Numbered from the stretch's first letter, positions 38,762-61,536 are shown. The stretch: 64,000 nucleotides of DNA from an uncultured Chloroflexia bacterium (GCA_963719285.1 CAVRBO010000004.1:842064-906063); one strand, 5' to 3'. The notes: generated from the letters alone by a model not told the origin. Numbers and translations are program-made.

Positions 38762-38777
38762 TGCGCAACCGATTTCG
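38762..38777. promoter_or_regulatory. Candidate LacI-family operator (copy 4)
   Basis: TGCGCAACCGATTTCG lies 70 nt upstream of the Gfo/Idh/MocA start. Its core GCAACCGATTTC matches the reverse complement of the core of the 43357 site at 11 of 12 positions. Confidence 0.35.
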
Positions 38778-38845
38778 CGGGGCGAGGGCGGGTCGACTAC
38801 CATCGCGGCCTGGCGCCCAGCGGAGTGCGCCCATCGGAGGGCCGG

Positions 38846-43321: not shown

Positions 43322-43372
43322 TATTGACGTGGGGCGAGGCGCGATGATACCTTCCCTGCAATCGGTTGCGCA
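43322..43372. promoter_or_regulatory. Putative promoter plus LacI-family operator (copy 1)
   Basis: TATTGACG is at 43322-43329. The near-palindrome TGCAATCGGTTGCGCA at 43357-43372 matches the LacI-family consensus TGNAANCGNTTNCA in 13 of 14 positions. It sits immediately upstream of the AAGGAG site and ATG of iolD, and is divergent from the large paralog at 43299. Confidence 0.5.
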
Positions 43373-43382: not shown

Positions 43383-45269
43383 ATGGAGACCGTCCGGCTG
43401 ACCGTGGGCCAGGCCATCGTGCGTTTCCTTGCCCAGCAGTATGTCGAGCGGGACGGACGCGAGGGCCGCTTCATCGAGGGCGTCTGGGGCATCTTCGGGC
43501 ACGGCAACGTGGCCGGCCTGGGCCAGGCCCTCGAGGAGCTCGGCGACGCCGAGGCGATGCCGTACTACCGACCCCAGAACGAGCAGGCCCAGGTCCACCT
43601 GGCCGCGGCGTTCGCCCGCCACCACAACCGCCTCCGGGCCTATGCCTGCACGTCGTCGGTGGGACCTGGCGCGATGAACATGGTCACCGGTGCCGCCGGG
43701 GCGACCGTCAACCGCATCCCTGTCCTGCTCCTCCCGAGCGACTACTTCGCCAACCGGGCCCCGGATCCGGTCCTCCAGCAGATCGAGCACCCGACCGAGC
43801 GCGATGCGAGCGCCAACGACGCCTTCCGGCCGGTCTCGCGCTTCTTCGACCGGATCTCGCGGCCGGAGCAGCTCCTCGGCTCCCTGCCGGAGGCGTTCCG
43901 TGTCCTCACCGATCCGGCAGAGACGGGAGCGGTGACGATCTCGCTGCCCGAGGACGTCCAGTCCGAGGCGTTCGACTGGCCGACCCGGTTCTTCGGGAAG
44001 CGCGTCTGGCGGGTCCGGCGCCCGCAGCCGGACGCGGCCGACCTGGCCGCCGCGGCGCGGGTCATCGGCGCGTCCAAGGCCCCGGTCATCGTCGTGGGCG
44101 GCGGCACGATCTACTCCGAGGCGACCGACGAGCTCGCCGCGTTCGCGACCCGCTTCGGCATCCCGGTCGTCGAGACCCAGGCCGGCAAGGGCGCCCTGCC
44201 CTGGAACCATCCGATGAACGCCGGGCCGGCCGGCACGAACGGCGGCCTGGCGGCCAACCGGCTGGCCCGCGACGCGGACGTCGTCATCGGCATCGGGACC
44301 CGGATGGGCGACTTCGTCACCGCCTCGCGCACGACCTTCCAGCATCCCGGCGCGACGTTCGTCGGCATCAACATCGGGTCGATGGACGCCCACAAGTGGC
44401 GGGCGATCCCGGTGGTCGCAGACGCTCGCGAAGCGATCCGGGCGCTCGAGGCGCGGCTCACCGCGGACGGCTACGCCGGCACGGCGGCTCCCTATCGCCG
44501 GCGGATCGCGGACCTCAAGCACGAGTGGGACGGCATCGTCGACGGCCTGCGGGCGATCAACGGCGAGCCGGGCGATCTCGGCCAGGCCGAGGTGATCGGC
44601 CTCGTCAACGACGCGGTGGGCGGCCACGCGACCGTCATCTGCGCCGCCGGCAGCCTGCCCGGCGACCTGCTCCGCCTGTGGCGGCCCGAGGACCCCAAGG
44701 CCTACCACGTGGAGTACGGCTTCTCGTGCATGGGTTACGAGATCGTGGCCGGGCTCGGCGTACGCCTGGCCGACCCCGAGCGCGACGTGGTCGTCATGGT
44801 CGGCGACGGGTCGTATCTCATGCTCAACTCGGAGATCGTGACGGCGGTGGCCGAGGGCCTCAAGTTCACGATCGTCGTCCTCGACAACCATGGCTTCCAG
44901 TGCATCCTCGCGCTGCAGCGCCTGGTAGGCGTGCCCGACTTCGGCAACGAGCTCCGCTTCCGCGACCCGGAGCGCAACCGGCTGACCGGGCCGTACGTGC
45001 CGGTGGACTTCAAGGCCCACGCCGAGGCGATGGGCGCCCTCGCGATCCACGCCTGCACGCCCGATGAGCTGCGCGCCGCGCTCGCCCAGGCGAAGGTCGC
45101 CGACCGGGTCACGGTCATCGTCGTCCCGACCGAGCCCGAGAAGCGGATGCCCGGCTTCGAGTCGTGGTGGGACGTGCCGGTCGCGGGCGCGAGCGGACAG
45201 GCCGGCGTGCGGACCGCCCGGAAGGACTACGACAAGAAGCGCGCCGCCCAGCGCATCGACATCCAGTGA
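43383..45269 (+). CDS. iolD: 3D-(3,5/4)-trihydroxycyclohexane-1,2-dione acylhydrolase (thiamine-diphosphate enzyme, IolD-like)
   Basis: METVRLTVGQAIVRFLAQQYVERDG... is a typical IolD N-terminus, with a TPP-binding GDGSYLMLNSE motif. The start is at 43383 (AAGGAG site); the ATG at 43329 from the ORF track was not used. Confidence 0.85.
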   Translation: METVRLTVGQAIVRFLAQQYVERDGREGRFIEGVWGIFGHGNVAGLGQALEELGDAEAMPYYRPQNEQAQVHLAAAFARHHNRLRAYACTSSVGPGAMNMVTGAAGATVNRIPVLLLPSDYFANRAPDPVLQQIEHPTERDASANDAFRPVSRFFDRISRPEQLLGSLPEAFRVLTDPAETGAVTISLPEDVQSEAFDWPTRFFGKRVWRVRRPQPDAADLAAAARVIGASKAPVIVVGGGTIYSEATDELAAFATRFGIPVVETQAGKGALPWNHPMNAGPAGTNGGLAANRLARDADVVIGIGTRMGDFVTASRTTFQHPGATFVGINIGSMDAHKWRAIPVVADAREAIRALEARLTADGYAGTAAPYRRRIADLKHEWDGIVDGLRAINGEPGDLGQAEVIGLVNDAVGGHATVICAAGSLPGDLLRLWRPEDPKAYHVEYGFSCMGYEIVAGLGVRLADPERDVVVMVGDGSYLMLNSEIVTAVAEGLKFTIVVLDNHGFQCILALQRLVGVPDFGNELRFRDPERNRLTGPYVPVDFKAHAEAMGALAIHACTPDELRAALAQAKVADRVTVIVVPTEPEKRMPGFESWWDVPVAGASGQAGVRTARKDYDKKRAAQRIDIQ

Positions 45270-45328: not shown

Positions 45329-46567
45329 ATGCCCGGACCCGGGATCGAGCTCGTCGGCGCCGAAGAGACGGCCGAGGTGATGGAGGTGCTCCAGAGCGGC
45401 TACCTGAGCCGCTACGGCCCATCCGACGACCCCCGGTTCAAGGCCAAGGTCCACCACGTCGAAGAGGCGATCGCGAAGCTGACCGGGGTCAACCACGCCC
45501 TCGCCCTCCATGGCGGTGGATCGGCGGCGTTGTGGATCACCCTGCTCAGCCTGGGCATCGGAGCGGGCGACGAGGTCATCGTGCCCGGGTTCACCTACGT
45601 CGCCTCCATCTCGGCGATCGTGTACACCGGCGCGACGCCGGTCCTGGCGGAGATCGACCAGACGTTCGACCTGGACCCGGCCGACGTCGAGGCGAAGATC
45701 ACGCCCCGCACGGCGGCGATCCTCGTCGTCCACATGTTGGGTGGGGTGGCCCGGATCGAGGAGCTCAAGGCGATCGCCGACAAGCACGGGATCGCCCTCA
45801 TCGAGGATTGCGCCCAGGCATTCGGAGCGTCGTACAAGGGCCGCAGCGTCGGCTCATTCGGCATCGCCGGCACGTACAGCTTCAACGAGTACAAGACGAT
45901 CACCTGCGGCGACGGGGGGATGATCGTGACCGACGACGCCGGCCTGTACGAGCGCGCCTTCGCCATGCACGACCAGGGCCATGCCCCGGACCGGCTCGAG
46001 TCGAAGTACGCGCCGCGGCCCTTCCTTGGCATGAACTTCCGGATGACCGAGTTGTCCGGTGCCGTTCTCGGCGCGCAGGTCAGGAAGCTCGACACCATCG
46101 TGTCGCACCTGCGGGCCAACAAGGCGATCGTCAAGGACATGCTCGAAGAGGTCCCGATGATCGACTTCCGGACCTTGACCGACCCCGCGGGCGACCTCGC
46201 CACCCACCTCGTCGTCGTGCTTCCGACCGCGGAGATGGCCGACAAGGTGGTGGCGGAGGTCGGCTCGAGGACCCTCGGCGAGTCGGGCTGGCACACCTAC
46301 AGCCGGATGAACCACCTGCTCGACAAGCGGACGATCAACGGCAAGGGCTGCCCGTTCGATTGTGGCGACCCCAGCCACGCCCACGGCGAGTACCGCGCCG
46401 GCATGCTCCCCCAGACCGACGCGCTTCTCGATCGCTCGCTGAGCATCGGCATCGGGGTCAAGGATGCGAACCTGGCGCCGTTCGGCCTCCGGATGCGCGA
46501 CGGGGCGGCCGAGGCCCGGCAGGTCGGGGCCACGTTCCGGGACGCCGTGATCAAGCACCGGGCGTGA
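45329..46567 (+). CDS. DegT/DnrJ/EryC1/StrS-family PLP aminotransferase (scyllo-inosose / sugar aminotransferase-like)
   Basis: ...EVMEVLQSGYLSRYG...ALALHGGGSAALWITL...HMLGGVARIEELKAIADKHGIALIEDCAQAFGASYKGRSVGSFGIAGTYSFNEYKTITCGDGGM is a DegT-family fold. A GAGGAG ribosome-binding site is present. Confidence 0.85.
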   Translation: MPGPGIELVGAEETAEVMEVLQSGYLSRYGPSDDPRFKAKVHHVEEAIAKLTGVNHALALHGGGSAALWITLLSLGIGAGDEVIVPGFTYVASISAIVYTGATPVLAEIDQTFDLDPADVEAKITPRTAAILVVHMLGGVARIEELKAIADKHGIALIEDCAQAFGASYKGRSVGSFGIAGTYSFNEYKTITCGDGGMIVTDDAGLYERAFAMHDQGHAPDRLESKYAPRPFLGMNFRMTELSGAVLGAQVRKLDTIVSHLRANKAIVKDMLEEVPMIDFRTLTDPAGDLATHLVVVLPTAEMADKVVAEVGSRTLGESGWHTYSRMNHLLDKRTINGKGCPFDCGDPSHAHGEYRAGMLPQTDALLDRSLSIGIGVKDANLAPFGLRMRDGAAEARQVGATFRDAVIKHRA

Positions 46568-46583: not shown

Positions 46584-47582
46584 GTGATCGAGGCGGTCGT
46601 CGTCGGTCGGGTCGGCGTCGATCTCACCCCAGCGACGCCCCGAACGACGCTGGCCGCCGCGGACGGCTTCGTCCGGGCCGTCGGCGGGTTCGCCGGCAAC
46701 ATCGCCACGGGCCTCGCCCGGCTCGGGGTGTCCAGCGCGGTCGTCTCGGCCGTCGGCGACGACGGGCACGGCGACCACGTGCGTGCCTTCCTCGCGGGGG
46801 AGGGGATCGATGTCGGGGCGCTCGTCACCCGGGCGGGGTCGCGGACCCAGGTGGCGTTCTTCGAGGTCTGGCCGCCGGAACGCTTCCCGGTGACGTTCTA
46901 CCGGCCCGCCCCGGCACCCGAGACGCGACTGACGGTCGCCGACCTGCCCGTGGCGCTCCTGGACGAGGCGCCGCTGGTGATCGTCTCCGGCACGCTCCTG
47001 GCCACCGAACCGGCCCGCTCCGCGACGATGAGCCTCCTCGAGGTGCGACTGGCGTCGCGCTCCCGGCGGCCACCGTCCACCACGATCCTGGACCTGGACT
47101 GGCGCCCCACCCTGTGGGCTGACCCGGCCCAGGCGCCCGCGCTCATGGCCAGAGCGGCGGGACTGTCCGACATCCTCATCGGGAGCGACGCGGAGTTCGC
47201 GGCGACGGGCCTGGATCCGGCGATCGGCCGCGATGCGCATCCCGCGCTCATCGTGCTCAAGCACGGCGCGGATGGCGTCTCGCTCGTGACGCCGGGTGGT
47301 CGTCGGACCCTGGCCGGCCTCCCGATCGACGTCCTGTGCGGGATCGGGGCCGGCGACGCACTCAGCGCGGCCTTCGCCGCGGGCCTGCTCCGCGGCCTGG
47401 ACCCGGCGACGGCGCTGGAACGTGGCAATGCCGCCGGGGCGATCGTCGCCTCGCGCCTGATGTGCAGCACGGCCATGCCGACACCGGCCGACATCGACGC
47501 GCTGCTGGCCGCCCGGTCGAGCGTGCCTCGCCCGCGCGGCCCCGACAACCGACAGAGCCGTCCGCAGGAGGCCCGTCCATGA
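46584..47582 (+). CDS. iolC: PfkB-family carbohydrate kinase (5-dehydro-2-deoxygluconokinase-like)
   Basis: GRVGVDLTP...FVRAVGGFAGNIATGLARLG...GAGDALSAAFAAGLL is ribokinase/PfkB-like. Its position between the aminotransferase and iolB supports the call. Confidence 0.7.
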   Translation: MIEAVVVGRVGVDLTPATPRTTLAAADGFVRAVGGFAGNIATGLARLGVSSAVVSAVGDDGHGDHVRAFLAGEGIDVGALVTRAGSRTQVAFFEVWPPERFPVTFYRPAPAPETRLTVADLPVALLDEAPLVIVSGTLLATEPARSATMSLLEVRLASRSRRPPSTTILDLDWRPTLWADPAQAPALMARAAGLSDILIGSDAEFAATGLDPAIGRDAHPALIVLKHGADGVSLVTPGGRRTLAGLPIDVLCGIGAGDALSAAFAAGLLRGLDPATALERGNAAGAIVASRLMCSTAMPTPADIDALLAARSSVPRPRGPDNRQSRPQEARP

Positions 47583-48505
47583 CGAACGCAGGCGCCCCCC
47601 GGGAGCCGGTCATCCACCCGGCGAAGCTCCCGATGACCCGCGATGTCGCCTCCCTGCACATCCATCCCGATGGCACGGGCGCCGTCGCGACCGACCCCGC
47701 CCGGTCGGGCTGGCGGTATCTCTCGTTCCGCGCGTTCGGGCTCGCCGACGGCGAGGTCGTGGAGCTCGACCGGCCCGAGCAGGAGGCCGCGATCGTCACG
47801 ATCTCGGGCGGCGGCGTGGAGGTCGCGCCCGAGCGCGGCCCGGCGCTGGCGCTGCCCGGCCGGACCACGGTCTTCGCGGGGATGCCCTGGAGCGCGTATA
47901 TCCCGGCCGGGACCCGGACCCGGATCGTCGGCCGGCCGCTCCCCGGGCAGCGGGCCGTCGTGGCGGTCGCCCAGGCCCCGGGAACGGGTCGGGGCGGAGT
48001 GGCCCCCGAGCCGATCCTCGTGCGACCGGACGAGGTGGAGATCGAGATCCGGGGCGCCGGCAACGCCACCCGCCAGATCAACAACATCATGATGCCGGGC
48101 TTCCCCGCCGACCGGCTGCTCATCTGCGAGGTCTTCACCCCGAACGGCAACTGGTCGGGCTGGCCGCCCCACAAGCACGACGTGGACGACCCGCCACGCG
48201 AAGCGGTCCTCGAAGAGACGTACTACTACCAGATCAGCCGGCCCGAGGGCTGGGCGATCCAGCGCGTCTACCACCGCGATGGATCGCGGGACCTGGTCCT
48301 GCCGGTCCGCCATGGCGACCTGCTGAGCGTCGACCAGGGTTACCACCCGTTCGCCTCGACCCAGGGCTACGACGCCTACTACCTGAACGCACTGGCCGGC
48401 GACCGGCGGACGATGGCCAACACGGACGATCCGGACCTCGCCTGGGTCCGCACGCTGTGGCCGTCGATGGTGCCGGATCCCCGCCTGCCGCTCGTGCACA
48501 CGTGA
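47579..48505 (+). CDS. iolB: 5-deoxy-glucuronate isomerase
   Basis: ...SGWRYLSFRAFGLADGE...TPNGNWSGWPPHKHDVDDPPREAVLEETYYYQ... is the IolB family. It overlaps the upstream stop (ATGA). Confidence 0.8.
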   Translation: MTNAGAPREPVIHPAKLPMTRDVASLHIHPDGTGAVATDPARSGWRYLSFRAFGLADGEVVELDRPEQEAAIVTISGGGVEVAPERGPALALPGRTTVFAGMPWSAYIPAGTRTRIVGRPLPGQRAVVAVAQAPGTGRGGVAPEPILVRPDEVEIEIRGAGNATRQINNIMMPGFPADRLLICEVFTPNGNWSGWPPHKHDVDDPPREAVLEETYYYQISRPEGWAIQRVYHRDGSRDLVLPVRHGDLLSVDQGYHPFASTQGYDAYYLNALAGDRRTMANTDDPDLAWVRTLWPSMVPDPRLPLVHT

Positions 48506-49434
48506 CGGTCGAGGAGCGCCGCCTGCGGTTGCTCCGACTGGCCGGCGATCGGGGCATCGTGGCCGGCATCGCGCTCGATCATCGCGACAGCCTCCGATCC
48601 ATCCTCGAGCGGCGGGGCCTGGTCGGCCTCACGGACGCCGCGATGCGCTCCCTCAAGGTCCGGCTGGCCCGGGCGCTCGCCCCGGCGGCCACGGCGATCA
48701 TGCTGGACGAGGAATTCGGCGGCGAAGCGCTCGATGCGGGCGTGGTGCCGGCGTCAGTCGGCCTGATCATGCCCCTCGAGGCGCAGGGCTACGAGATGGT
48801 CGAGGACGGTCGGACGACCACCCTGCTCGCCGACTTCTCGCCCGACCATGCCCGCCGGCGCGGCGCCGACGCCTGCAAGCTGCTCCTGCCGTACCGGGTC
48901 GACCACGAGCCCTCGGCGATCCGCCAGGACGCCCTCGTGGAGGCGGCGGCGCGGACGTGCCACGAGGCCGGGCTGCCGCTGGTCGTGGAGCCCGTCGTGT
49001 ACCGCTGGTCCACCGAGCCGGCCGCCACCTACGCCGGTGCGTACGGACGCCTCGCGATCGAGGCCGTCGCGCGCATCCGGGCACTCGGACCGGACCTGCT
49101 CAAGCTGCCGTTCCCCGTACTCGGCCTGGCCACCGACGGCGAGGCGGCGGCGCTCGAAGCCTGCCGGGCGCTGGACACGGCGTGCGCGGGCACGCCCTGG
49201 GTCCTCCTCGGCGCGGGCGCAGATACCGCCACCTTCATCGACCAGATCCGCATCGCCGGTACGGCCGGGGCGTCCGGGTTCCTCGCCGGTCGCGGGATCT
49301 GGGCCGCCGCCCTGGGGCGGGATCCGGACGAGGTGGAGCGGGTGGCGCTGGCCGTCTGCCGCCCGGACTTCGAGCGCTGCCGGGCGATGGCCGAACGGGT
49401 CGCCCGTCCCATCGAGGCACCGGCGAGCGGCTGA
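48502..49434 (+). CDS. Class I aldolase (tagatose-1,6-bisphosphate aldolase / LacD-DeoC-like); candidate 6-phospho-5-dehydro-2-deoxy-D-gluconate aldolase
   Basis: IALDHRDSLRSI...DACKLLLPYRVDH...LPLVVEPVVY...DLLKLPFPV. A GTG start overlaps the iolB stop (GTGA). Confidence 0.65.
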   Translation: MTVEERRLRLLRLAGDRGIVAGIALDHRDSLRSILERRGLVGLTDAAMRSLKVRLARALAPAATAIMLDEEFGGEALDAGVVPASVGLIMPLEAQGYEMVEDGRTTTLLADFSPDHARRRGADACKLLLPYRVDHEPSAIRQDALVEAAARTCHEAGLPLVVEPVVYRWSTEPAATYAGAYGRLAIEAVARIRALGPDLLKLPFPVLGLATDGEAAALEACRALDTACAGTPWVLLGAGADTATFIDQIRIAGTAGASGFLAGRGIWAAALGRDPDEVERVALAVCRPDFERCRAMAERVARPIEAPASG

Positions 49435-49489: not shown

Positions 49490-50347
49490 ATGCGTCTCGT
49501 CTACAACTCCAATTCGACGATGTACCTCCCGGCGCTCATGCAGATCCGGATCGCCCGGGAGACCGGCTGGGACGGGATCTTCGTCCGGGCCGAGCACCTC
49601 CTGCGCTACCTCGCCCAGGGCTACCCGGTCGAGAGCCTGCGCGACGCGCTGGCCGGCCTGGGGCCGGTCAACCTGGGTGCGTTGCCGGACGTGGAGCGCT
49701 GGCGACCCGACGAGCGGGCCGCGATGCTCGCGGAGGCGGAGGCGCTGACCCGACTGGCGGTGGACGTCGGGGTCACGAACGTCCAGGTCCTGTCCGGACC
49801 GGTCTCCCCCGGCGGGGCGTACGGCGGCCCGGCGGAGCTGGCGCCGGCGGAGCTCCGGCGGGTGACCGCCGAGGCGATCCGGGCCGTCGCCGACCTCGGC
49901 GCGCCGCACGGGATCCGGTACTACCTGGAGCCCGTGGCATGGACGCCCCTCGGTTCGCTCGCCCGGGCGGTCGAGGCGATCGACGCCGTCGAGCGCGACA
50001 ACGTGGGCCTCGTGCTCGACTTCTGGCATCTCTGGCAGCGGGGCACGACGCCGGACGAGATCGCCAGGCTCGACCGCCGGGTCATCTCCGGGGTGGACTT
50101 CGCCGACTCGCTGGGTCCGGCGGGCGCGCCGACGCCGGAGCAGGCAACGCGCCGCGTCTGGCCGGGCGAGGGCGAGATCCCGCTCCGGGAGTGGGTCGCC
50201 GCGGTCCGTGCGACCGGCTTCGACGGCTGGTGGGACAACGAGTTGTACAGCCCGCTCCACTGGGAATGGGCGGATCCGTTCGCGGTCGGCTCCGGACTCC
50301 TGGAGGTCCTCCGGATGTCGCTGCGGGATCGACCCTCGGTCAGGTAG
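49490..50347 (+). CDS. Sugar phosphate isomerase/epimerase (xylose-isomerase-like TIM barrel; IolE/IolI-like)
   Basis: ...WDGIFVRAEHL...YYLEPVAWTPLGSLARAVEAIDAVERDNVGLVLDFWHLW... A CAGGAG ribosome-binding site is present. Confidence 0.75.
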   Translation: MRLVYNSNSTMYLPALMQIRIARETGWDGIFVRAEHLLRYLAQGYPVESLRDALAGLGPVNLGALPDVERWRPDERAAMLAEAEALTRLAVDVGVTNVQVLSGPVSPGGAYGGPAELAPAELRRVTAEAIRAVADLGAPHGIRYYLEPVAWTPLGSLARAVEAIDAVERDNVGLVLDFWHLWQRGTTPDEIARLDRRVISGVDFADSLGPAGAPTPEQATRRVWPGEGEIPLREWVAAVRATGFDGWWDNELYSPLHWEWADPFAVGSGLLEVLRMSLRDRPSVR

Positions 50348-50395
50348 ATTGACGTCGCGGATGCGCGGGTGCTACGGTCTGCGCAATCGGTTGCA
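50347..50395. promoter_or_regulatory. Putative promoter plus LacI-family operator (copy 2, autoregulatory position)
   Basis: GATTGACG is at 50347-50354. TGCGCAATCGGTTGCA at 50380-50395 is essentially the reverse complement of the 43357 site. It lies upstream of the LacI regulator gene. Confidence 0.5.
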
Positions 50396-50587
50396 GTCGT
50401 TGGAGGTGCGGTCCAAGATGCGTGCTTCCCCGCGCGATCTCCGGGCGACCGACGTCGCCTGGTCGGGCGACCTGCGCTGCCATCGGGCCGGATCGGCCGG
50501 TCGGGCACGCCAGCGGGCGGCCCTCGACCGGAGCGCCCGCGGGGCTGACCGCGCCCTTCGCGTCGCGGTCTAGGGGAGGAGGGGCGC

Positions 50588-51643
50588 GTGGCGGTGAGCG
50601 GGGACGGCCAGCGCCGTCGGATCCTCCTCAAGGATGTCGCCGCGCGGGCGAACGTGTCCGGTTCGACGGCATCGCGTGCCCTGGCCGACGATCCACGCAT
50701 CAGCCTCGGGACGCGTGAGACGGTCAAGGCCGCCGCGGCCGACCTGCACTACGTCCCGAACGCCGCCGCTCGGAGCCTCCGCGTCCGGCGGACGCGGACG
50801 CTCGGCCTGCTATTGCCGGATCTCCGCGATCCGGTCCACGGCCAGATCGCCTCCGCGTTCGAGCAGGAGGCCCGCGAGGCGGGCTATGTCGTGATGGTCG
50901 TGGCCGGCGAACGGGACCTCGTCCGCGAGCGCCTCGCGCTGCGCATCTTCTCGGAGCACGGCACGGACGGCGTGGCGATCGTGTCGAGCGTCCTGTCGCC
51001 CAGGGAGCTCCGGGAGCGGGTCGACCCCGACCGGCTCGTGCTCGTCTGGCCGGACCACCGGAGCCTGCCCCGGCGCGACGGGCCGCGCGTCCCCGGGGTG
51101 ATCCAGACCGATGACGAGAGCGGCGTCCGCGCGGCCGTCGATCACCTCGTCGACAGCGGCTGCCGGCGGCTGGGCTATGTCGAGAGCGGCGTGCGCGCCT
51201 CCAACACGATCCGTGCCGAGACCGTGGCCGCGACCCTGCGCTCGCGTGGCATCCGCGCCCCCGTGCGGATGTTCAAGGGGAGCGTCGACGCGTGGCGCGA
51301 CCCGGCCGACCTCGCGGCCGAGATCGCCGGGGACCTGCCCGACGCGCTGGTGTGCTACGACGATCTCCTCGCCCTCGGCCTCATGGACGCGCTGCGCGAT
51401 CGCGGCGTGCGCATCCCGGACGACGTCGGCATCGTGGGCTTCGACGGCATCCCGTTCGCGGCGATCTCCAATCCCCGGCTGACCACGGTGGCCGTACCGT
51501 CGGCCGAGATGGGCCGGGCGGCGGCCGCGTCGCTCATCCGGGCGGTCCACGAGGGCGTCCTGCCCGACGGGGTGATGTTGTCGGTGGAGTTCAAGGTCCG
51601 CGAGAGCACCCGCAGCGCAGCGGTGCGGGGTGGTCGCTCGTGA
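50588..51643 (+). CDS. LacI family transcriptional regulator
   Basis: LKDVAARANVSGSTASRALADDPRISLGTRETVKAAAADLHYVPNAAARSL is the LacI helix-turn-helix, followed by a periplasmic-binding-protein-like sugar-binding domain. A GTG start follows a GGAGGA ribosome-binding site. Confidence 0.85.
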   Translation: MAVSGDGQRRRILLKDVAARANVSGSTASRALADDPRISLGTRETVKAAAADLHYVPNAAARSLRVRRTRTLGLLLPDLRDPVHGQIASAFEQEAREAGYVVMVVAGERDLVRERLALRIFSEHGTDGVAIVSSVLSPRELRERVDPDRLVLVWPDHRSLPRRDGPRVPGVIQTDDESGVRAAVDHLVDSGCRRLGYVESGVRASNTIRAETVAATLRSRGIRAPVRMFKGSVDAWRDPADLAAEIAGDLPDALVCYDDLLALGLMDALRDRGVRIPDDVGIVGFDGIPFAAISNPRLTTVAVPSAEMGRAAAASLIRAVHEGVLPDGVMLSVEFKVRESTRSAAVRGGRS

Positions 51644-52586
51644 CGTGCCGATCCGACCCGCTCGGGCGCGAGGCGCGTCCCGGCCGGCCGATCCGTTGCC
51701 GCTGACGCCGGACGGGGGAGCCGAGCCGCAGGTCGATCTCGCGGATCTCGCCCGGCGCGGCCGGTTGCTGGTCGTCGAGTCGGTCGCCCACAGTGGCGCC
51801 GGGCACATCGGCGGCCCGCTGTCGGCGATGGACCTGCTCCTCGCCCTGTTCTTCCGGGTCCTGCGCATCCGCCCCGACGAGCCGGACTGGCCCGATCGGG
51901 ACCGGTTCATCCTGTCCAAGGGCCACTCCGCGATCGGGCTGTACGTGGCGATGGCGCTGCGCGGCTACTTCCCGGTCGAGGAGCTCGCGACGTTCGACAG
52001 CGGCGACAGCCGGCTCCAGGGCCACCCGGACATGACCCGCCTGCCCGGGCTCGAGGCGTCCACGGGTTCCCTTGGCCAGGGGCTCGCGGTCGGGCTCGGG
52101 ATCGCCCTGGGAGCGCGGATGCGCGGCCTGGACGTGCACACGTTCGTCATGCTCGGCGACGGTGAGACCCAGGAAGGGATGATCTGGGAGAGCGTGATGG
52201 TCGCGGCCCGCTACGGGCTGGGCAACCTCACCGCGATCGTCGACTGCAATGGCCTCCAGCAGTACGGCTGGCCGTTGAGCCCGGGCGACGAGGCTCGCGC
52301 CGACCGGCAGGACCCGCTGGCCGGGACGCGCCTTCGGGCCGCGCTCGAGGCGTTCGGCTGGCGCGTGCTGGAGATCGACGGCCACGACACGGAGGCGATC
52401 GTGGCGGCATGCACGGATGCCCGTGCCGGCGCGCCCGCCGGGCGGCCCACCGCGATCCTGGCTCGGACCGCGAAGGGCCGCGGGCTGTCGTTCACCGAAG
52501 GGCGGTTCGAGTGGCACGCCCGGGTGGCCACGGCCGACGAGGTGGCAGCGGCCAGGCGCGAGCTCGCGCCGGAGGTCGTGTCGTGA
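51630..52586 (+). CDS. Transketolase, N-terminal (TPP-binding) subunit of a split transketolase
   Basis: HSGAGHIGGPLSAMDLL...RDRFILSKGHSAIGLY...GSLGQGLAVGLGIA...FVMLGDGETQEG. The start is uncertain and overlaps the end of the LacI gene. Confidence 0.8.
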   Translation: MVARDVPIRPARARGASRPADPLPLTPDGGAEPQVDLADLARRGRLLVVESVAHSGAGHIGGPLSAMDLLLALFFRVLRIRPDEPDWPDRDRFILSKGHSAIGLYVAMALRGYFPVEELATFDSGDSRLQGHPDMTRLPGLEASTGSLGQGLAVGLGIALGARMRGLDVHTFVMLGDGETQEGMIWESVMVAARYGLGNLTAIVDCNGLQQYGWPLSPGDEARADRQDPLAGTRLRAALEAFGWRVLEIDGHDTEAIVAACTDARAGAPAGRPTAILARTAKGRGLSFTEGRFEWHARVATADEVAAARRELAPEVVS

Positions 52587-53542
52587 CGACCGCCATGCGC
52601 GACGCCTGGGCGGAGACCCTGTCCGAGCTCGCGGACGAGGACCCGAACCTGCTCGTCCTCGACGCGGACCTCGGGACCTCCACTCGGGCGGACCGGTTCG
52701 CGCTCGCGCACCCGGACCGCTTCCTGCAGATGGGCATCGCCGAGCAGAACATGGTCGGCACGGCGGTCGGGCTCGCGACGATGGGCTACGTCCCGTGGCT
52801 CTCGTCGTTCGGCGTGTTCTTCACCCACCGTGCGGTCGATCCGATCCGGATGCTCGTCGCCCAGACCCACGCGAACGTCAAGATCGGCGCGGCCTACACG
52901 GGGCTGCTCACCGGGTTCACCGGCAAGACCCACCAGGATGTCGAGGACCTCGCGATCATGCGGGCGATGCCGGGCATGACGGTGATCTCCCCGGGCGACG
53001 CCGCCGAGTGCGCGGCCGCGATCCGCTGGGCCACGGCGACGCCGGGTCCGGTCTACCTGCGCCTCGCTCGCGACGCGGGGCCCGACCTGTTCGATGCCGG
53101 GTACCGCTTCGAGCCCGGCCGGGTGGTCTCGTTGCGCGAGGGGTCGGACGTGCTTCTCGTCTCGACCGGCGTGCAGTCGGCGCGCTGCGTGGCGGCGGCC
53201 TCGCTCCTCGATGCGGCGGGCATCTCCGCGGGACTCCTCCACGTCCCGTCCATCAAGCCGGTGGATGCCGCCGCGATCGCCGCGGCGGCCGCGCGGGTCG
53301 AGCTCGTGGTGACGGTCGAGGAGCACACGATCCACGGCGGCCTGGGCGGTCTGGTGGCCGAGATCCTGGGCGAGCTGCAGCCCCGCCGGATGGTCCGCAT
53401 CGGCATCGCCGACACGTGGGGCGAGTCGGCGCCCAACGCCTTCCTGCTCGAGCGCCACGGACTGTCCGCCGAGCGGGTGGCCGAGCGCGTCGCGCGCGAG
53501 TTCCCCGGCGCCCCGGCGCAGGTCGGGACCACGGATCGATGA
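52583..53542 (+). CDS. Transketolase, C-terminal (pyrimidine-binding) subunit
   Basis: ...MGIAEQNMVGTAVGLATMGYVPW...FFTHRAVDPIRM... It overlaps the upstream stop (GTGA). Confidence 0.8.
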   Translation: MTTAMRDAWAETLSELADEDPNLLVLDADLGTSTRADRFALAHPDRFLQMGIAEQNMVGTAVGLATMGYVPWLSSFGVFFTHRAVDPIRMLVAQTHANVKIGAAYTGLLTGFTGKTHQDVEDLAIMRAMPGMTVISPGDAAECAAAIRWATATPGPVYLRLARDAGPDLFDAGYRFEPGRVVSLREGSDVLLVSTGVQSARCVAAASLLDAAGISAGLLHVPSIKPVDAAAIAAAAARVELVVTVEEHTIHGGLGGLVAEILGELQPRRMVRIGIADTWGESAPNAFLLERHGLSAERVAERVAREFPGAPAQVGTTDR

Positions 53543-53573: not shown

Positions 53574-54617
53574 ATGAGCGGATTCACGGTCAAGAATCCC
53601 GGCGACATCGGGGTCGCGTTCCTCGGCGTGGGCCGGATCGGCACGACCCACCTCCTGACCCTGGCCGGGATCCCCAACGCCCGCCTCGTCGTCGTCGCCG
53701 ATCTCGACCCGGCCGAGGCGGAGCGCGGCCGCGAGGTCGGACGGGCGGAGCGGGCGACGATCGACGCGCTCGACGCGATCGACGACCCGGCCGTGGAGGC
53801 GGTCGTCATCGTCACCCCTACCAGCACCCACGCCACCCTCATCGAGGCCGCCCTGCGGGCGGGCAAGGCGATCTGGAGCGAGAAGCCCATCGCCCTGGAC
53901 CTGGCCGAAACGAACCGGGTCGTCACCCTCTGGCGCGAGACCGGCCTGCCGGTCCAGATGGGGTTCATGCGCCGGTTCGATCCGGGCTACGTCCGGGCGA
54001 AGGAGCTCATCGACGCGGGCGAGCTCGGCCGCGTCGAGCAGTTCCGGGCGTATTCGCGCGACACGTACCTGCCGCCGGCCAAGTTCATCCGCGACAGTGG
54101 CGGGTCGTTCCTCGACATGAGCGTCCACGACTTCGACCTCGCCCGGTTCCTCGTCGGGGAGGTCGAGGAGGTCTCGGCCTGGGGCAGCAACGTCATCGAC
54201 CGGCGCTTCGAGGAGGGCGGCGACGTCGACACGGCCGTCACGATGCTCCGCTTCCGCAACGGGGCCTTGGGTGTCGTGGAGATGTCCCGGCGATCCGCCT
54301 GGGGCTACGACATACGGACGGAGGTCGCCGGTGCGGCCGGCAAGGTCGTCGTCGAGGCGCCCCACAAGACCGATCTGACCTTCTCGCGCCGGTTCGGCTA
54401 CGAGGGCGACCACTACGAGAACTTCCCCGATCGGTTCGAGGTGGCCTACCGGCTCGAGTTCGAGGCGTTCTTCAAGGCGCTCGCGGCGGGGGTCGTACCC
54501 ACACCGGGTCCGGACGAAGCGCTCGAGACGCTGCGGCTCGCGCTGGCGGCCAAGAAGAGCTGGCTCGAGGGGCGGCCGGTCAGGGTCGACGAGATCGTCG
54601 CCGAGGTGCCCGCGTGA
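53574..54617 (+). CDS. iolG: Inositol 2-dehydrogenase-like Gfo/Idh/MocA oxidoreductase
   Basis: GVAFLGVGRIGTTHL...IWSEKPIALDLAE...GELGRVEQFRAYSRD... A GAGGAG ribosome-binding site is present. Confidence 0.75.
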   Translation: MSGFTVKNPGDIGVAFLGVGRIGTTHLLTLAGIPNARLVVVADLDPAEAERGREVGRAERATIDALDAIDDPAVEAVVIVTPTSTHATLIEAALRAGKAIWSEKPIALDLAETNRVVTLWRETGLPVQMGFMRRFDPGYVRAKELIDAGELGRVEQFRAYSRDTYLPPAKFIRDSGGSFLDMSVHDFDLARFLVGEVEEVSAWGSNVIDRRFEEGGDVDTAVTMLRFRNGALGVVEMSRRSAWGYDIRTEVAGAAGKVVVEAPHKTDLTFSRRFGYEGDHYENFPDRFEVAYRLEFEAFFKALAAGVVPTPGPDEALETLRLALAAKKSWLEGRPVRVDEIVAEVPA

Positions 54618-55453
54618 CCGGGCCCGTCCGCCACCTTCGACCAGGGACCGGGCCGGGCGTCGTCCTCGACATGTCCCCGGAGAGCGTCGGCTGGCGCTAC
54701 CTGTCGTCCCGGATCGTCGTGCTGGGGCCCGGCGAGACCTTCGAGGGGGACACCGGCGGCAACGAGATCGCGGTCGTGCCGCTCCAGGGCTCCGGCACGT
54801 TCGCGTTCGGCGGCGAGACGCGTGCCGTCGCGCGGGCCGACGTCTTCACGGCCAAGCCGCAGGTCCTGTATCTGCCGCCGGGGACGGGCTATGTGATCGG
54901 CGCGGTCGGCGCCTTCGAGGTGGCGATCGGCGAGGCGCCCGCGACCGGTCGGTATCCGGCCCGCCTGTATGCGCCGGGCGAGCTGCCGGCCTTCGCGCGC
55001 GGTGGCGGGAATGTGAGCCGGGGCGTGACGGCGACCCTCGATCCATCGTTCGACTCGGAGCGGCTGATCGCCTACGAGATCCTCACCCCGAGCGGCAACT
55101 GGTCGAGCTTCCCGCCGCATCGTCACGACGGGCGCGAGGGGACGACCTATCACGAGGAGTCGTACTACTACCGGCTGTCGCCGGCCGATGGGTTCGCGAT
55201 CCAGCGGATCTACACCCGGGACACGGATCTCGACGTCGCGATCGCGGCGGCGGATGGCGACCTGGTCCTCGTCCATGAGGGCTACCACACGGTGGCGGTC
55301 GCACCCGGCACGAACGCGTACTACCTGAACTTCCTGGCCGGCGACACGAAGCCCGTGACCCAGCTCAACGATCCGGCCTACGCGTGGATCGCCGACGACT
55401 GGACCGGCCGGCCGATCGCGATCCCGCTCGATCCGGCGGACCCTCCCGGCTGA
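54614..55453 (+). CDS. iolB: 5-deoxy-glucuronate isomerase, second paralog
   Basis: VGWRYLSSRIVVLGPGE...TPSGNWSSFPPHRHDGREGTTYHEESYYYRL is the IolB family. It is roughly 35% identical by eye to the 47579 copy. A GTGA overlap with iolG is present. Confidence 0.8.
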   Translation: MTGPVRHLRPGTGPGVVLDMSPESVGWRYLSSRIVVLGPGETFEGDTGGNEIAVVPLQGSGTFAFGGETRAVARADVFTAKPQVLYLPPGTGYVIGAVGAFEVAIGEAPATGRYPARLYAPGELPAFARGGGNVSRGVTATLDPSFDSERLIAYEILTPSGNWSSFPPHRHDGREGTTYHEESYYYRLSPADGFAIQRIYTRDTDLDVAIAAADGDLVLVHEGYHTVAVAPGTNAYYLNFLAGDTKPVTQLNDPAYAWIADDWTGRPIAIPLDPADPPG

Positions 55454-58094: not shown

Positions 58095-58141
58095 TATTGA
58101 CGGGCCATAGGTCGGACGCTAGCATCGTACAAACGGTTGCA
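58095..58141. promoter_or_regulatory. Putative promoter plus LacI-family operator (copy 3)
   Basis: TATTGACG is at 58095-58102. TACAAACGGTTGCA at 58128-58141 matches TGNAANCGNTTNCA in 13 of 14 positions. It lies in the divergent intergenic region between the large paralog (58061) and the PotA-like ABC operon (58281). Confidence 0.45.
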
Positions 58142-58280
58142 CAAGAGGGAGCTGATGCGCGCATCCCCACCCCCTGCCGCCCGATCATGGTGATCCCGAT
58201 ACACGAACGGGAGCTCCCCGCCGCGCCGACCGAGCCGGCTGTGCCCGAGACGCTGATCGCGCCAGCGAGCGGTTTCGACC

Positions 58281-59366
58281 TTGCCTGAGTCGACACCCGC
58301 CATCGAGCTGCGCCACACCACGAAACGCTATGGCCAGACGGTCGCCCTCAACGACGTGTCGATGGTGATCGAACCCGGCGAGTTCTTCTGCCTCCTCGGC
58401 CCGTCCGGGTGTGGCAAGACGACGACCCTGAACCTCATCGGCGGGTTCATCCCGGTGAGCGCGGGCGAGCTGCTGATCGAGGGCCGCACGGTCAACGACC
58501 TGCCGCCCCACAAGCGCAACGTCAACACGGTCTTCCAGAACTACGCCCTGTTCCCGCACATGACCGTGGCCCAGAACGTCGCGTTCGGCCTGCGGATGGA
58601 GAGCCTGCCCGCGGCGGAGGTGACCCGACGGACCGGCGAGTACCTGGAGCTCGTCGGGCTGGAAGGGCTGAGCCAGCGGCTTCCGTCGGAGATGTCCGGC
58701 GGCCAGCAACAGCGGGTGGCCCTGGCCCGGGCCCTGGCCAAACGTCCCGCGGTCCTGCTGCTCGACGAGCCGCTCGGCGCCCTCGATCTCAAGCTGCGCC
58801 GGAACATGCAGTCGGAGCTGTCGCGTATCCATCGCCAGGTGGGCACGACCTTCGTCTTCGTCACCCACGATCAGGACGAGGCGCTCTCGATGGGCACCCG
58901 GATCGCCATCATGTCGGGCGGTCGGGTCGCCCAGATCGGGACGCCCCGGGAGGTCTACGACCGGCCGGTCAACCGCTTCGTGGCCGACTTCGTCGGCGAG
59001 ACGAACTTCCTGTCCGGGACGGTGGCGCCGGAGGACGGCCGGCCGGTGTTCGGCCTGTCGGGCGGCGGCCGGGTGATCGCCCCCACGGGATCGCCCGCCG
59101 GGCCCGCGACGCTCATGGTCCGCCCGGAGTCGCTGACCCTGCGGCCGCTCGACGATCCGAGCCCGGAGCCCGGTATCACCGGGCGGATCGTGGACATCGC
59201 ATTCCTGGGCAACCACACACGGATCACCCTCGCGACGACGGCAGGTGACATCGTCGCGATCCGGCCACACGGGACCAGTGTTCGAACGACCCACCAGGAG
59301 GAGGAGTTGGGGGAGGAGGTGTGCGTATGGTGGCCTGCGGACGACGCCGCACTCATCGGAGACTGA
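58281..59366 (+). CDS. ABC transporter ATP-binding protein (PotA/spermidine-putrescine type)
   Basis: Walker A (GPSGCGKTT), the signature LSGGQQQRVALARAL, Walker B (LLLDEPLGALD), and a C-terminal TOBE-like domain. The first available in-frame start is the TTG at 58281; there is an in-frame stop at 58254. Confidence 0.8.
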   Translation: MPESTPAIELRHTTKRYGQTVALNDVSMVIEPGEFFCLLGPSGCGKTTTLNLIGGFIPVSAGELLIEGRTVNDLPPHKRNVNTVFQNYALFPHMTVAQNVAFGLRMESLPAAEVTRRTGEYLELVGLEGLSQRLPSEMSGGQQQRVALARALAKRPAVLLLDEPLGALDLKLRRNMQSELSRIHRQVGTTFVFVTHDQDEALSMGTRIAIMSGGRVAQIGTPREVYDRPVNRFVADFVGETNFLSGTVAPEDGRPVFGLSGGGRVIAPTGSPAGPATLMVRPESLTLRPLDDPSPEPGITGRIVDIAFLGNHTRITLATTAGDIVAIRPHGTSVRTTHQEEELGEEVCVWWPADDAALIGD

Positions 59367-59403
59367 TCGACCGTCACGTGGACGATGCAAGGAGGAGCGT
59401 GGA

Positions 59404-60588
59404 ATGACTGATCTGATGCGCGAATACAGCCGACGGCAGTTCCTCAAGGTGACTGCCGCGGCGAGCGCAGCTGTCGGCGCCGGCGGCATCCTCGCCGCCT
59501 GTTCGACCGCCGCGACGCCGGTCCCGACGACCGCTCCGACGGCCGCCGGCACGGCCGGTCCGACTGCCGCTCCGGCGACCGCCGCCCCGACCGCCGCCCC
59601 GACCGGAACGTTCAACTGGATGACCTGGGGTGACCACTGGTACCAGGCCCAGGTCGACGCCATCGCCGCGACGAACAACATCAAGATCAACGCGACGCTG
59701 TTCAGCGACAACATCGACGCCTATACCAAGGTCAAGCAGGTCGGCGGCCAGATCGACATGGTCTCGGGGGACGCCCTGTGGGTACCCCACTACTTCGAGG
59801 CGGGCCTCATCGAGGCGTGGGACATCAACTCGCTCGAGGTCGCGAAGCAGCTCTACTCGATCGCTCGCTCGTTCCCGATCTGGACGAAGCCGGAAGGCTA
59901 CCTCGGCTACCCGTTCGGGTGGTCGCCGGTCCAGATCTACTACGACCCGGCGCACGTCTCCCCGGCCCCCGATTCGTGGGAGGTCCTCATCGACCCGAAG
60001 TACAAGAAGCGGGTCGTCGTGGAGAACCAGCCGGTCGAGATCATGGCCTACATGGGCAAGTTCGCCGGGGTGGGCAATGCCTACAGCATGACCCCCGACG
60101 AGATCGCCAAGGCCAAGGACCTGCTCAAGCAGCTCAAGCCGAACATCCTGAAGCTGGCCGACCAGGCCACCGACACGATCGCCCTGCTCAAGACGGGTGA
60201 GGCGTGGATCGCCACCGGCAACCTCGGCACCGAATCGCGGGTCAAGGACCAGGGCGGCCCCGATCTCAACGTCTTCACGCCCAAGGAGGGGACCATCGGC
60301 TGGATGGACTCCGAGATGATCGTGAAGGGCGGCGGGAACGAGAACCTGATCATGCCGTTCCTCGAGCTGGCCGAGCAGGCCGAATACATCGCCGCGAACT
60401 TCATCCTCAACGGGCGGCCGCTGTTCAACGAGGCCGCCTACAAGATCCTGGTCAACCAGGGCCAGCAGGAGCGCGCCGATCGGTTCCTGTACAACAAGCC
60501 CGAGACGGTCCAGACGATGGACCTCAAGGGCCCCGGCACGTCCACCCAGGCCGTGATCGACGCGTTCAACGAGGTCTTCGGCGCCTAG
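59404..60588 (+). CDS. ABC transporter substrate-binding lipoprotein (PotD/PotF polyamine-type family) with a Tat-like signal
   Basis: SRRQFLKVTAAASAAVGAGGILAAC (twin-arginine motif plus lipobox) is followed by a Pro/Ala/Thr linker and a PotD-like fold of 394 aa. An AGGAGG ribosome-binding site is present. Confidence 0.8.
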   Translation: MTDLMREYSRRQFLKVTAAASAAVGAGGILAACSTAATPVPTTAPTAAGTAGPTAAPATAAPTAAPTGTFNWMTWGDHWYQAQVDAIAATNNIKINATLFSDNIDAYTKVKQVGGQIDMVSGDALWVPHYFEAGLIEAWDINSLEVAKQLYSIARSFPIWTKPEGYLGYPFGWSPVQIYYDPAHVSPAPDSWEVLIDPKYKKRVVVENQPVEIMAYMGKFAGVGNAYSMTPDEIAKAKDLLKQLKPNILKLADQATDTIALLKTGEAWIATGNLGTESRVKDQGGPDLNVFTPKEGTIGWMDSEMIVKGGGNENLIMPFLELAEQAEYIAANFILNGRPLFNEAAYKILVNQGQQERADRFLYNKPETVQTMDLKGPGTSTQAVIDAFNEVFGA

Positions 60589-60618
60589 TCCCGAAGAGCT
60601 CGGGACGGGACCGACAAC

Positions 60619-61536
60619 ATGACGACCGAGATCCGCGGCGGGGCCGGAGAGGCTCCGCTCGCGGGTTCCGGCCGCGGCGTGGGCGCGCGGCTGGGACGGG
60701 CCCTCCCGTTCTGGCCGGGCCTGCTCATGCTGACCCTGCTGTTCATCATCCCCATGTTCATCATGTTGCTGTTCAGCTTCTGGCGGACCAACTCGGACTT
60801 CGACCTGGTCCGCGAGTTGAACACCAACAACTACGCGCGGTTCTTCAACCAGCCGACGTACATCCGGACCTTCTTCAAGACCCTGCTGATGGGGTCCGCC
60901 GTGACGATCGGCGGGCTGGCCATCTCCCTGCCGTTCACCTACTTCCTCGTGCGCTACGTGAGCCGGCGCTGGCAGCGGATCGTGCTCCTGGCCGTGATCG
61001 TCCCGTTCTGGACGAGCTACCTGCTCCGGGTCTACGCATGGGAGGCGATCCTGGGCGAGACGGGCGCGCTGAACCAGTTCCTCATGGGCATCGGCGTCAT
61101 CCACGAACCGTCGACCCTGTTCGTCTACAACAACCTGACGGTCTTCGTCGTGCTCGTGTACGTCTACTTTCCGTTCGCCGCGCTCGCCCTGTACGCGGCC
61201 CTCGAGAAGTTCGACTTCACCCAGCTCAACGCGGCCCAGGACCTGGGCGCACGGCCCGACCAGGCGTTCCGGCACATCCTGCTGCCCCAGATCCGGACCG
61301 GGATCATCACGGCCTGCATCTTCGTGTTCATCCCGATCCTGGGCGAGTTCCTCACCCCGACCCTGGTGGGTGGAGCCGACGGGAGCCTGATCGCGAACCT
61401 GATCGTGAACTTCACCCGCCAGGGCCAGTACCCGGAAGGGGCCGCGCTGGCGATCATCATCGCGGCGTTCGTCACGATCGTGCTCATCGTGTTCCGCCGA
61501 TCCCTGCGGGTCGAGGATGTGGTGACCCGTGGCTAA
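60619..61536 (+). CDS. ABC transporter permease (PotB-like)
   Basis: Six TM helices and the motif AAQDLGARPDQAFRHILLPQ. Confidence 0.85.
   Translation: MTTEIRGGAGEAPLAGSGRGVGARLGRALPFWPGLLMLTLLFIIPMFIMLLFSFWRTNSDFDLVRELNTNNYARFFNQPTYIRTFFKTLLMGSAVTIGGLAISLPFTYFLVRYVSRRWQRIVLLAVIVPFWTSYLLRVYAWEAILGETGALNQFLMGIGVIHEPSTLFVYNNLTVFVVLVYVYFPFAALALYAALEKFDFTQLNAAQDLGARPDQAFRHILLPQIRTGIITACIFVFIPILGEFLTPTLVGGADGSLIANLIVNFTRQGQYPEGAALAIIIAAFVTIVLIVFRRSLRVEDVVTRG

Follow-up and report, generated by a model that had tools for sequence, protein, structure and literature searches.

A split transketolase with a remodelled substrate pocket as a candidate terminal enzyme of inositol catabolism in Chloroflexota and Verrucomicrobiota

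Among carbon sources of plant and soil origin, inositol is a major one, and its breakdown by bacteria is commonly regarded as a single pathway with small variations. A stretch of 64,000 nucleotides from an uncultured Chloroflexia bacterium (GCA_963719285.1 CAVRBO010000004.1:842064-906063), hereafter called the window, raises the question of what a transketolase encoded in two halves does among genes of this pathway. The two genes, TKN and TKC, follow that of a LacI-family repressor:

50588..51643 (+), LacI-family repressor, first gene of the transketolase operon (PF00356, PF13377, PF00532)
51630..52586 (+), transketolase N-half TKN, with the thiamine diphosphate (ThDP)-binding PP domain, Transketolase_N (PF00456, 167 bits); alternative start GTG 51645
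52583..53542 (+), transketolase C-half TKC, Transket_pyr plus Transketolase_C (PF02779, PF02780)

Its sequence places this transketolase in a clade of its own, in which the substrate site is remodelled, and marks it as something other than a housekeeping enzyme. That it is dedicated to a pathway and altered in specificity is a conclusion that we hold, from its residues and gene context, with considerably more confidence than the particular reaction proposed below. The original prediction had likewise taken it to be dedicated to the cyclitol cluster rather than a housekeeping copy, and both the pocket, altered across the clade, and the synteny with iol genes bear this out.

The substrate pocket of the split transketolase

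The closest solved structures are those of the Carboxydothermus hydrogenoformans split transketolase (6yaj, 275 bits to TKC, and 6yak, 243 bits to TKN), followed by human TKT. In keeping with the split-type transketolase superfamily, the PP domain is carried by TKN, and the Pyr and C-terminal domains by the adjacent second polypeptide. Alignment to 6yak and human TKT revealed that TKN has kept all ThDP-binding and catalytic motifs (GAGHIGG, SKGH, GHP, GDGETQEG, DCNG, and EWH), with conserved histidines that we take to be the equivalents of E. coli H26, H66, H100, and H261. In TKC, E54 aligns with human TKT E366, the cofactor-activating glutamate. The N-half also carries a loop insertion of about 13 residues compared to the C. 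hydrogenoformans enzyme. Against the transketolase equivalog NF004559 (cut-off 488), the halves score 262 and 245 bits, each being able to match half of the model at most.

We then compared the substrate pocket of TKC to that of human TKT. Three of the usual four phosphate/anion ligands are kept (Arg6, Ser33, and Arg163), and the fourth, a histidine (human H416, E. coli H461), is replaced by Tyr105. Furthermore, the canonical motif G-E-D-G-x-S/T-H gives way to G-F-T-G-K-T-H (G-F/L-T-G-K-T-H in the clade): human Glu423-Asp424 correspond to Phe/Leu112-Thr113, Pro426 to Lys115, and the motif histidine to H117. From what is known of pocket residues in the transketolase literature, the aspartate of this motif (E. 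coli D469, yeast D477) reads the donor hydroxyl next to the cleaved unit, the C4-OH. The two residues that mark a housekeeping pocket, H461 and D469 in E. coli numbering, are thus Tyr105 and Thr113 in the window enzyme. Both belong to the positions associated with transketolase specificity, R358, S385, H461, D469, and R520 (PMC7661550, PMC12016104). The C. hydrogenoformans enzyme, the best solved match, has the catalytic motifs in common with the window enzyme but keeps H...GEDGASH where the latter reads Y...GFTGKTH; it is also described as the only transketolase of that organism (PMC7661550), whereas the window enzyme would be a pathway-specific paralogue.

The altered residues are a feature of the whole clade. 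In all 80 related loci that we analyzed, Y105 and K115 never vary and T113 hardly does, a conservation that is partly circular because these loci were retrieved in part by a pattern covering the pocket motif. As an independent check, we searched 1.84 billion cluster representatives in an unbiased way. Representatives above approximately 50% identity showed the Y/T-S/K pocket, while below approximately 47% the canonical H...EDG.SH dominated. No NCBIfam model names the clade with the remodelled pocket.

The transketolase genes in the window and in related loci

The window has a G+C content of about 72%, and raw lists of open reading frames are full of spurious frames. Genes were therefore called by third-position GC (GC3) frame analysis combined with Pfam and NCBIfam profile scans, which reproduced the coordinates, the GTGA junction, and the gene row LacI-TKN-TKC-IolG-IolB2 of the original prediction. 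Around LacI, TKN, and TKC, the cluster contains the following genes, which run from IolD to IolB2 in one direction and in a single row:

43383..45269 (+), IolD, trihydroxycyclohexane-1,2-dione hydrolase, a ThDP enzyme (TIGR04377, 890 bits, cut-off 715)
45329..46567 (+), DegT/DnrJ/EryC1-family aminotransferase (PF01041, 272 bits; catalytic Lys present, YSFNEYKTITCGDGG)
46584..47582 (+), IolC-like PfkB kinase, 5-dehydro-2-deoxygluconokinase-like (TIGR04382 is the top match, 257 bits, under the cut-off of 300)
47579..48505 (+), IolB1, 5-deoxy-glucuronate isomerase (TIGR04378, 263 bits, cut-off 205), ATGA overlap with IolC
48502..49434 (+), LacD/DeoC-family class I aldolase (PRK12858, 184 bits; PF01791, 69 bits; DUF2090 weak), GTGA overlap with IolB1
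49490..50347 (+), xylose-isomerase-like TIM-barrel protein, not a canonical IolE (PF01261, 108 bits; no IolE equivalog match)
53574..54617 (+), IolG-like inositol 2-dehydrogenase of the Gfo/Idh/MocA family (TIGR04380, 336 bits, just under the cut-off of 355)
54614..55453 (+), IolB2, second 5-deoxy-glucuronate isomerase (TIGR04378, 240.5 bits, cut-off 205; PF04962), GTGA overlap with IolG

The IolD start, ATG 43383, is kept in relatives, and the DegT-family gene is kept across the Chloroflexota clusters. The LacD/DeoC-family protein is likely, by its profile matches, to be the 2-deoxy-5-keto-gluconate-6-phosphate aldolase, a step to which LacD-like DUF2090 proteins have been linked (PMC9007349). 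Profile scans found no IolE in the 64 kb; an IolE-like gene, with 36% identity to the IolE of a relative, lies just past the window end in the same organism. We also considered the DegT protein as a ColD-type pyridoxamine phosphate dehydratase replacing IolE, and rejected this in view of its catalytic lysine and of the IolE-like gene past the window end. Class-II IolJ and transaldolase were not found in the window, and tblastn with IolA- and GabD-type aldehyde dehydrogenase (ALDH) queries gave zero matches in the 64 kb; IolA may lie elsewhere in the genome.

The two transketolase genes are tightly joined. The GTG start of TKC at 52583 overlaps the TGA stop of TKN at 52584-86, giving GTGA, with a GGAGG 7 nucleotides (nt) upstream, and an RTGA overlap with an upstream GGAGG is kept between the halves in 71 of 78 related loci. 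TKN could start at GTG 51630, with a 14-nt overlap with LacI, or at GTG 51645, 1 nt past the LacI stop. Gene calling done independently on a different assembly of this organism picked 51630, and in relatives of the window type (L002, L011, and L018) the sole candidate TKN starts overlap the LacI stop, indicating that the LacI/TKN junction is also conserved. These arrangements suggest translational coupling of the transketolase genes. Since 4-nt overlaps are also found at IolC/IolB1, IolB1/aldolase, and IolG/IolB2, such tight coupling is the general style of the operon and not specific to the transketolase.

TKC has thousands of close homologues, the named ones from Chloroflexota metagenome-assembled genomes. 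A scan of one genome per species yielded 464 relatives, the best 80 loci of which were analyzed, with neighbouring genes mapped by tblastn of the window proteins. Soil bacteria of at least three phyla are represented, with loci of Chloroflexota (Limnocylindria and related groups), of Verrucomicrobiota (Chthoniobacterales, Terrimicrobiaceae), and of two Steroidobacteraceae. The proteins share 63 to 87% identity across phyla, the ThDP ligands are invariant, and the transketolase halves are always adjacent. Flanks of 3 kb or more on either side are available for 49 loci; one or more of IolD, IolG, and IolB are present in 47 of these, two in 36, and all three in 23, so that the co-occurrence with iol genes put forward as a check by the original prediction is strongly positive. 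LacI lies directly upstream of TKN in at least 13 loci. The neighbours of the transketolase in the 80 loci are:

IolG, 64/80, the commonest
IolD, 47/80
IolE, 28 + 13 of 80, two types
IolB2, 35/80
IolB1, 14/80
Succinate-semialdehyde dehydrogenase (SSADH)-type (GabD) ALDH, 18/80
Flavin/iron-sulfur (FAD/FeS) D-2-hydroxyacid dehydrogenase, 14/80
IolC, 9/80
Aldolase, 7/80
IolA, 6/80
Transaldolase, 5/80

These loci include several types of cluster. A first verrucomicrobial type has the order IolD-IolE-TKN-TKC-IolG-IolG-IolB-DeoR regulator-sugar ATP-binding cassette (ABC) transporter; the scores of its IolD, IolG, and IolB exceed the NCBIfam equivalog cut-offs, its IolE is identified by the top match, and no IolC, aldolase, or IolA was seen within 10 kb. 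In a second verrucomicrobial type, TKC-IolG is directly followed by two tandem SSADH/GabD-type ALDHs and a 977-residue FAD/FeS D-2-hydroxyacid dehydrogenase, and a canonical IolD-IolB-IolA(-IolC) operon lies nearby. Chloroflexota type 2 reads IolD-TKN-TKC-IolB2-DegT-LacI, and the window type corresponds to this row with an inserted IolC-IolB1-aldolase-TIM module. Three homologues with 50 to 55% identity and another residue at position 113 (P0123, P0128, and P0130) lie in unrelated neighbourhoods without iol context, and the association with iol genes is thus limited to the tight clade.

Predicted substrate and products

The original prediction had proposed 5-dehydro-2-deoxygluconate-6-phosphate as the compound on which to measure activity. 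We rejected this phosphorylated donor on chemical grounds: its phosphate sits on the CH2OH beside the keto group, which is thereby blocked, and it therefore cannot donate a glycolaldehyde unit. Established transketolase chemistry, together with our own inference, instead makes the unphosphorylated IolB product, 5-dehydro-2-deoxy-D-gluconate (DKG; HOCH2-CO-CHOH-CHOH-CH2-COO-), the chemically sensible donor. DKG has the D-threo configuration that is needed in transketolase donors, and its sole difference from xylulose-5-phosphate is a -CH2-COO- in place of -CH2-O-PO3, which makes it a carboxylate look-alike of this standard substrate.

We propose that TKN and TKC would form a heteromeric ThDP-dependent catabolic transketolase of a LacI-controlled cyclitol regulon, with DKG as the donor because the conserved IolD, IolE, IolB, and IolG enzymes, equivalogs of the 5-deoxy route, make DKG. 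C6-C5 of DKG would be moved as a glycolaldehyde unit onto an aldose phosphate (probably glyceraldehyde-3-phosphate or erythrose-4-phosphate or ribose-5-phosphate), leaving (3R)-3-hydroxy-4-oxobutanoate (malic semialdehyde). An ALDH would then oxidise malic semialdehyde to D-malate, which would be converted into pyruvate or oxaloacetate. Such a pathway end would be ATP independent and would bypass IolC, IolJ, and IolA. The loss of two acidic residues and the gain of Lys115 near donor C4/C5 would fit a carboxylate lying closer to ThDP than a phosphate does.

The original prediction had raised the transketolase as a possible replacement for missing downstream steps, on the premise that the aldolase plus IolA route is absent. 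In the window, this premise holds for IolA and for class-II IolJ but fails for IolC and the LacD/DUF2090-type aldolase, which are both present. The transketolase is thus not simply a replacement there and would rather form a branch parallel to the kinase/aldolase branch. In many relatives, which have no IolC, aldolase, or IolA within 10 kb, replacement is plausible.

The involvement of D-malate was derived from the stereochemistry before more distant relatives were examined. Two such clade members were then found to adjoin Iso_dh proteins that pass TIGR02089 (528 and 533 bits, cut-off 470) and best match the Pseudomonas tartrate dehydrogenase/decarboxylase. We take these neighbours to belong to the DmlA/TtuC family, which oxidatively decarboxylates D-malate. 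One of the two members is a fused transketolase of 628 residues with 54% identity and the Y/T/K pocket kept (L085, GCA_036675505.1, 10001-11887), in the row TPP enzyme-IolE-TtuC (Iso_dh)-TK-IolB with an ALDH nearby; the other, with 56% identity, has a divergently transcribed Iso_dh alongside. The tartrate/D-malate-type dehydrogenases next to these two distant members are what the D-malate proposal had predicted. Moreover, the SSADH-type ALDH (18/80) and the FAD/FeS dehydrogenase (14/80) are both more frequent neighbours than IolC (9), aldolase (7), or IolA (6).

Precedents exist for the individual steps. In Acinetobacter baumannii, an SSADH-like ALDH makes D-malate from malic semialdehyde, and a DmlA orthologue carries the D-malate on to pyruvate (PMC11353897). 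This carnitine pathway has the same intermediates as those predicted here, 3-hydroxy-4-oxobutanoate, D-malate, and pyruvate, and the same SSADH-like and DmlA/TtuC-like families stand beside relatives of the transketolase, but not in the window; the semialdehyde comes from a carnitine monooxygenase in A. baumannii, whereas a transketolase would supply it in the proposed route. E. coli TktA, and better its R358I/H461S/R520Q variant, splits 5-keto-D-gluconate, which is DKG plus a 2-hydroxyl, to tartaric semialdehyde, with SSADH proposed as the oxidant (PMC12016104). The reaction type is the same, and the engineered position H461 is the residue that is naturally replaced by Tyr105 in the window enzyme. 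In TktA, this is an engineered or side activity of a full-length housekeeping enzyme, whereas the window enzyme would be a natural, dedicated, and split one that has kept both arginines.

A transketolase that naturally acts on a sulfonate ketose is known from the sulfo-TK pathway (PMC9594981). Its 6-deoxy-6-sulfofructose transketolase, SqwGH (PMC9594981, PMC11659671), is likewise a catabolic transketolase within a sugar-acid-type degradation cluster, and both it and the proposed enzyme would pass C2 units to glyceraldehyde-3-phosphate from a ketose with a terminal anion other than phosphate. The anion is a sulfonate of another pathway in one case and would be a carboxylate in the other, and the likeness drawn here is one of function and context. 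The window clade lies among iol genes and not among the sulfoquinovose or apiose genes that characterise the contexts of SqwGH and the apulose-4-phosphate transketolase, two known catabolic split transketolases. The upstream enzymes IolG, IolD, and IolB (and IolE in relatives) are of the same families as in the canonical IolG-E-D-B-C-J-A set of Bacillus subtilis and in the IolC-DUF2090 variant (PMC9007349). However, the known routes phosphorylate DKG and use an aldolase to give dihydroxyacetone phosphate (DHAP) and malonate semialdehyde, whereas the proposed route would split unphosphorylated DKG one bond further along, into C2 and C4. What we propose brings together an enzyme class and a pathway that are both known, in a combination that is undescribed; searches of the open-access literature, extended to inositol intermediates and to D-malate, yielded no publication that connects a transketolase with the catabolism of inositol.

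Several observations weigh against the cleavage of DKG to D-malate, as does the partial circularity of the motif conservation. The enzyme activity of the clade is a prediction from sequence and gene context. The aspartate that reads the C4-OH is a threonine in TKC although DKG keeps that hydroxyl, so that a different ketose is possible. IolC, together with an aldolase or IolA, coexists with the transketolase in the window and in one verrucomicrobial cluster type, and the lack of IolC and IolJ in other loci refers to local searches within 10 kb. In the 64-kb window, there is neither an ALDH nor a D-malate dehydrogenase. The tandem ALDHs of verrucomicrobial type 2 score as GabD equivalogs and could be ordinary SSADHs. 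The FAD/FeS protein next to them resembles YdiJ, and we downgraded it as a candidate D-malate dehydrogenase: its match is far under the equivalog cut-off and, since E. coli YdiJ does not oxidise D-malate (PMC9504171), its presence lends the D-malate step little weight. Finally, in the limited context available for the relative with 56% identity (P0121), there is a TtuC-type gene next to it but no sign of iol genes. With all this considered, we regard the specific path from DKG to D-malate, whose substrate, acceptor, and products are all deduced, as on balance probable.

The alternative that fares best is a catabolic transketolase of the cyclitol pathway that acts on a molecule other than DKG, which we consider unlikely but worth keeping in mind. 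Another inositol isomer or an aminocyclitol could give rise to the donor, as a stereoisomeric 2-deoxy-5-keto-hexonate, or the donor could be a uronate-type ketose (5-keto-gluconate, fructuronate) yielding tartrate semialdehyde; in a further variant, a carboxylated aldehyde such as malonate semialdehyde would serve as the acceptor. The exchange of Asp for Thr at the C4-OH-reading position suggests a nonstandard hydroxyl pattern. A hint of an amino- or conjugated cyclitol comes from the Chloroflexota clusters, where the DegT aminotransferase, an ABC transporter of the polyamine type, and hydrolases resembling CehA/McbA are always added. The window also holds two IolB paralogues and no IolA to clear malonate semialdehyde, and TtuC-type enzymes use tartrate as well (by the name of TIGR02089 and the promiscuity of DmlA; PMC11353897). 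Nevertheless, the conserved core of IolD, IolE, IolB, and IolG scores as equivalogs of the 5-deoxy route, which yields DKG specifically, and the verrucomicrobial clusters do without the aminotransferase and without a kinase and aldolase that would produce malonate semialdehyde.

An ordinary pentose phosphate transketolase paralogue, using xylulose-5-phosphate, fructose-6-phosphate, and sedoheptulose-7-phosphate and coregulated to rebalance sugar phosphates, perhaps with a nearby transaldolase, appears distinctly improbable to us. It would account for the retained catalytic residues and three of four phosphate ligands, as well as for the transaldolase found near the cluster in five loci and about 18 kb downstream in the organism of the window. 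However, the canonical inositol products, DHAP and acetyl-CoA, call for no extra transketolase, the His and Asp that bind standard substrates are invariably lost, and so tight and conserved a place in iol operons over three phyla is unlike a general enzyme of the pentose phosphate pathway. That the pair is inactive, noncatalytic, or a chance hitchhiker is very improbable given two intact reading frames with a strong coding signal, 63 to 87% identity across phyla with invariant ThDP ligands, and a ribosome-binding site and 4-nt overlap kept in 71/78 loci.

Regulation and surroundings of the cluster

The LacI protein of the window combines HTH_LacI with a periplasmic-binding fold, and predicted operators are found at three promoters together with the following features:

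43357..43370 (+), LacI-type operator O1, TGCAATCGGTTGCG, 13 nt before the IolD start, after TTGACG and -10-like hexamers
50349..50395 (+), promoter-like TTGACG-N18-TACGGT followed by operator O2, CGCAATCGGTTGCA (50382-50395), upstream of LacI-TK-IolG-IolB2
58097..58141 (+), promoter TTGACG-N17-TAGCAT plus operator O3, TACAAACGGTTGCA (58128-58141), ahead of the ABC transporter operon
58281..62374 (+), ABC transporter operon by Pfam matches: ATPase 58281-59366, polyamine-type binding protein 59404-60588, permeases 60619-61536 and 61529-62374

The shared operator, TGCAAWCGGTTGCR, occurs in 3 copies in 64 kb versus 0.03 expected and fits the LacI-family consensus TGnAAnCGnTTnCA. Each copy lies a few bases past a promoter-like TTGACG-N17/18-(-10) site. 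A consensus promoter scan picked up the transporter promoter alone, the other two resting on conservation; indeed, the promoter and operator blocks are found at the same positions in Chloroflexota relatives. The IolD, LacI-TK, and ABC transporter operons thus appear to form one regulon under LacI, which would be autoregulated as the first gene of its operon. This is in good agreement with the regulon label that the genes had been given in the original prediction.

Between O2 and the LacI start, a 51-codon open reading frame with its own GGAGG (50418-50573, MRASPRDL...) is kept in L001, L003, and L008, and a 12-codon frame that also begins with MRASP follows O3 (58154-58192). They may encode leader peptides or be just conserved untranslated sequence.

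The cluster is flanked by two paralogous genes for proteins of 864 to 865 residues (55467-58061, -, and 40702-43299, -), which have no Pfam match and whose C-terminal part matches a CehA/McbA metallohydrolase domain (154 bits). They are kept in the Chloroflexota cluster versions only and may release the cyclitol from a conjugate. The ABC transporter operon is kept in window-type loci, and every Chloroflexota relative has the DegT aminotransferase (45329-46567) and the polyamine-type transporter (58281-62374), both of which the verrucomicrobial relatives lack. The actual substrate of the cluster may be an aminocyclitol such as inosamine rather than inositol.

Upstream, at 38378-40700, a further Gfo/Idh/MocA dehydrogenase (+) is encoded, as is a second TIM-barrel protein of the xylose-isomerase-like kind (-, 172 bits); IolE is not detectable in either. 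Beyond the window end, at about 64.5 to 71.8 kb in window coordinates (L091, 12107-19402), an IolE-like TIM-barrel protein is encoded, together with, on the other strand, a class-III aminotransferase, two Gfo/Idh/MocA dehydrogenases, another TIM-barrel protein, and a transaldolase, in what looks like a second cyclitol-type gene group. In this assembly of the same organism (ENA ERZ25039539 contig_6027; L081/L091), IolD, IolB1, and the 864-residue gene are fragmented, probably by assembly indels rather than as real pseudogenes, and the window copies are intact. Also upstream of the cluster, a GH38 alpha-mannosidase-like gene (28334-31261, -) and a separate sugar ABC transporter (24360-25718, +; 22374-23363, +) stand without a copy of the LacI operator.

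Overall, the clade, split and occasionally fused, could be an unrecognised ATP-independent terminal branch of inositol, perhaps aminocyclitol, catabolism that is widespread in soil Verrucomicrobiota and Chloroflexota, a proposal that we make tentatively, as one falling a little short of probable. If true, this would be a new end of the inositol pathway that spends no ATP and sends carbon to the pentose phosphates and D-malate, for which it would be a natural source. Next to sulfo-TK, it would give a second natural case in which a transketolase has been retuned to a ketose with an anion other than phosphate, and it would offer a natural template for the 5-keto-gluconate-cleaving transketolases engineered for tartrate production. 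According to the authors of GapMind, many inositol users are without either known aldolase; in one survey, this was the case for 8 of 26 inositol-utilising genomes (PMC9007349), and the branch would account for some inositol users without IolJ/DUF2090. Finally, hundreds of Verrucomicrobiota and Chloroflexota genomes, mostly known from metagenomes only, carry the blanket annotation "transketolase", which it would correct.

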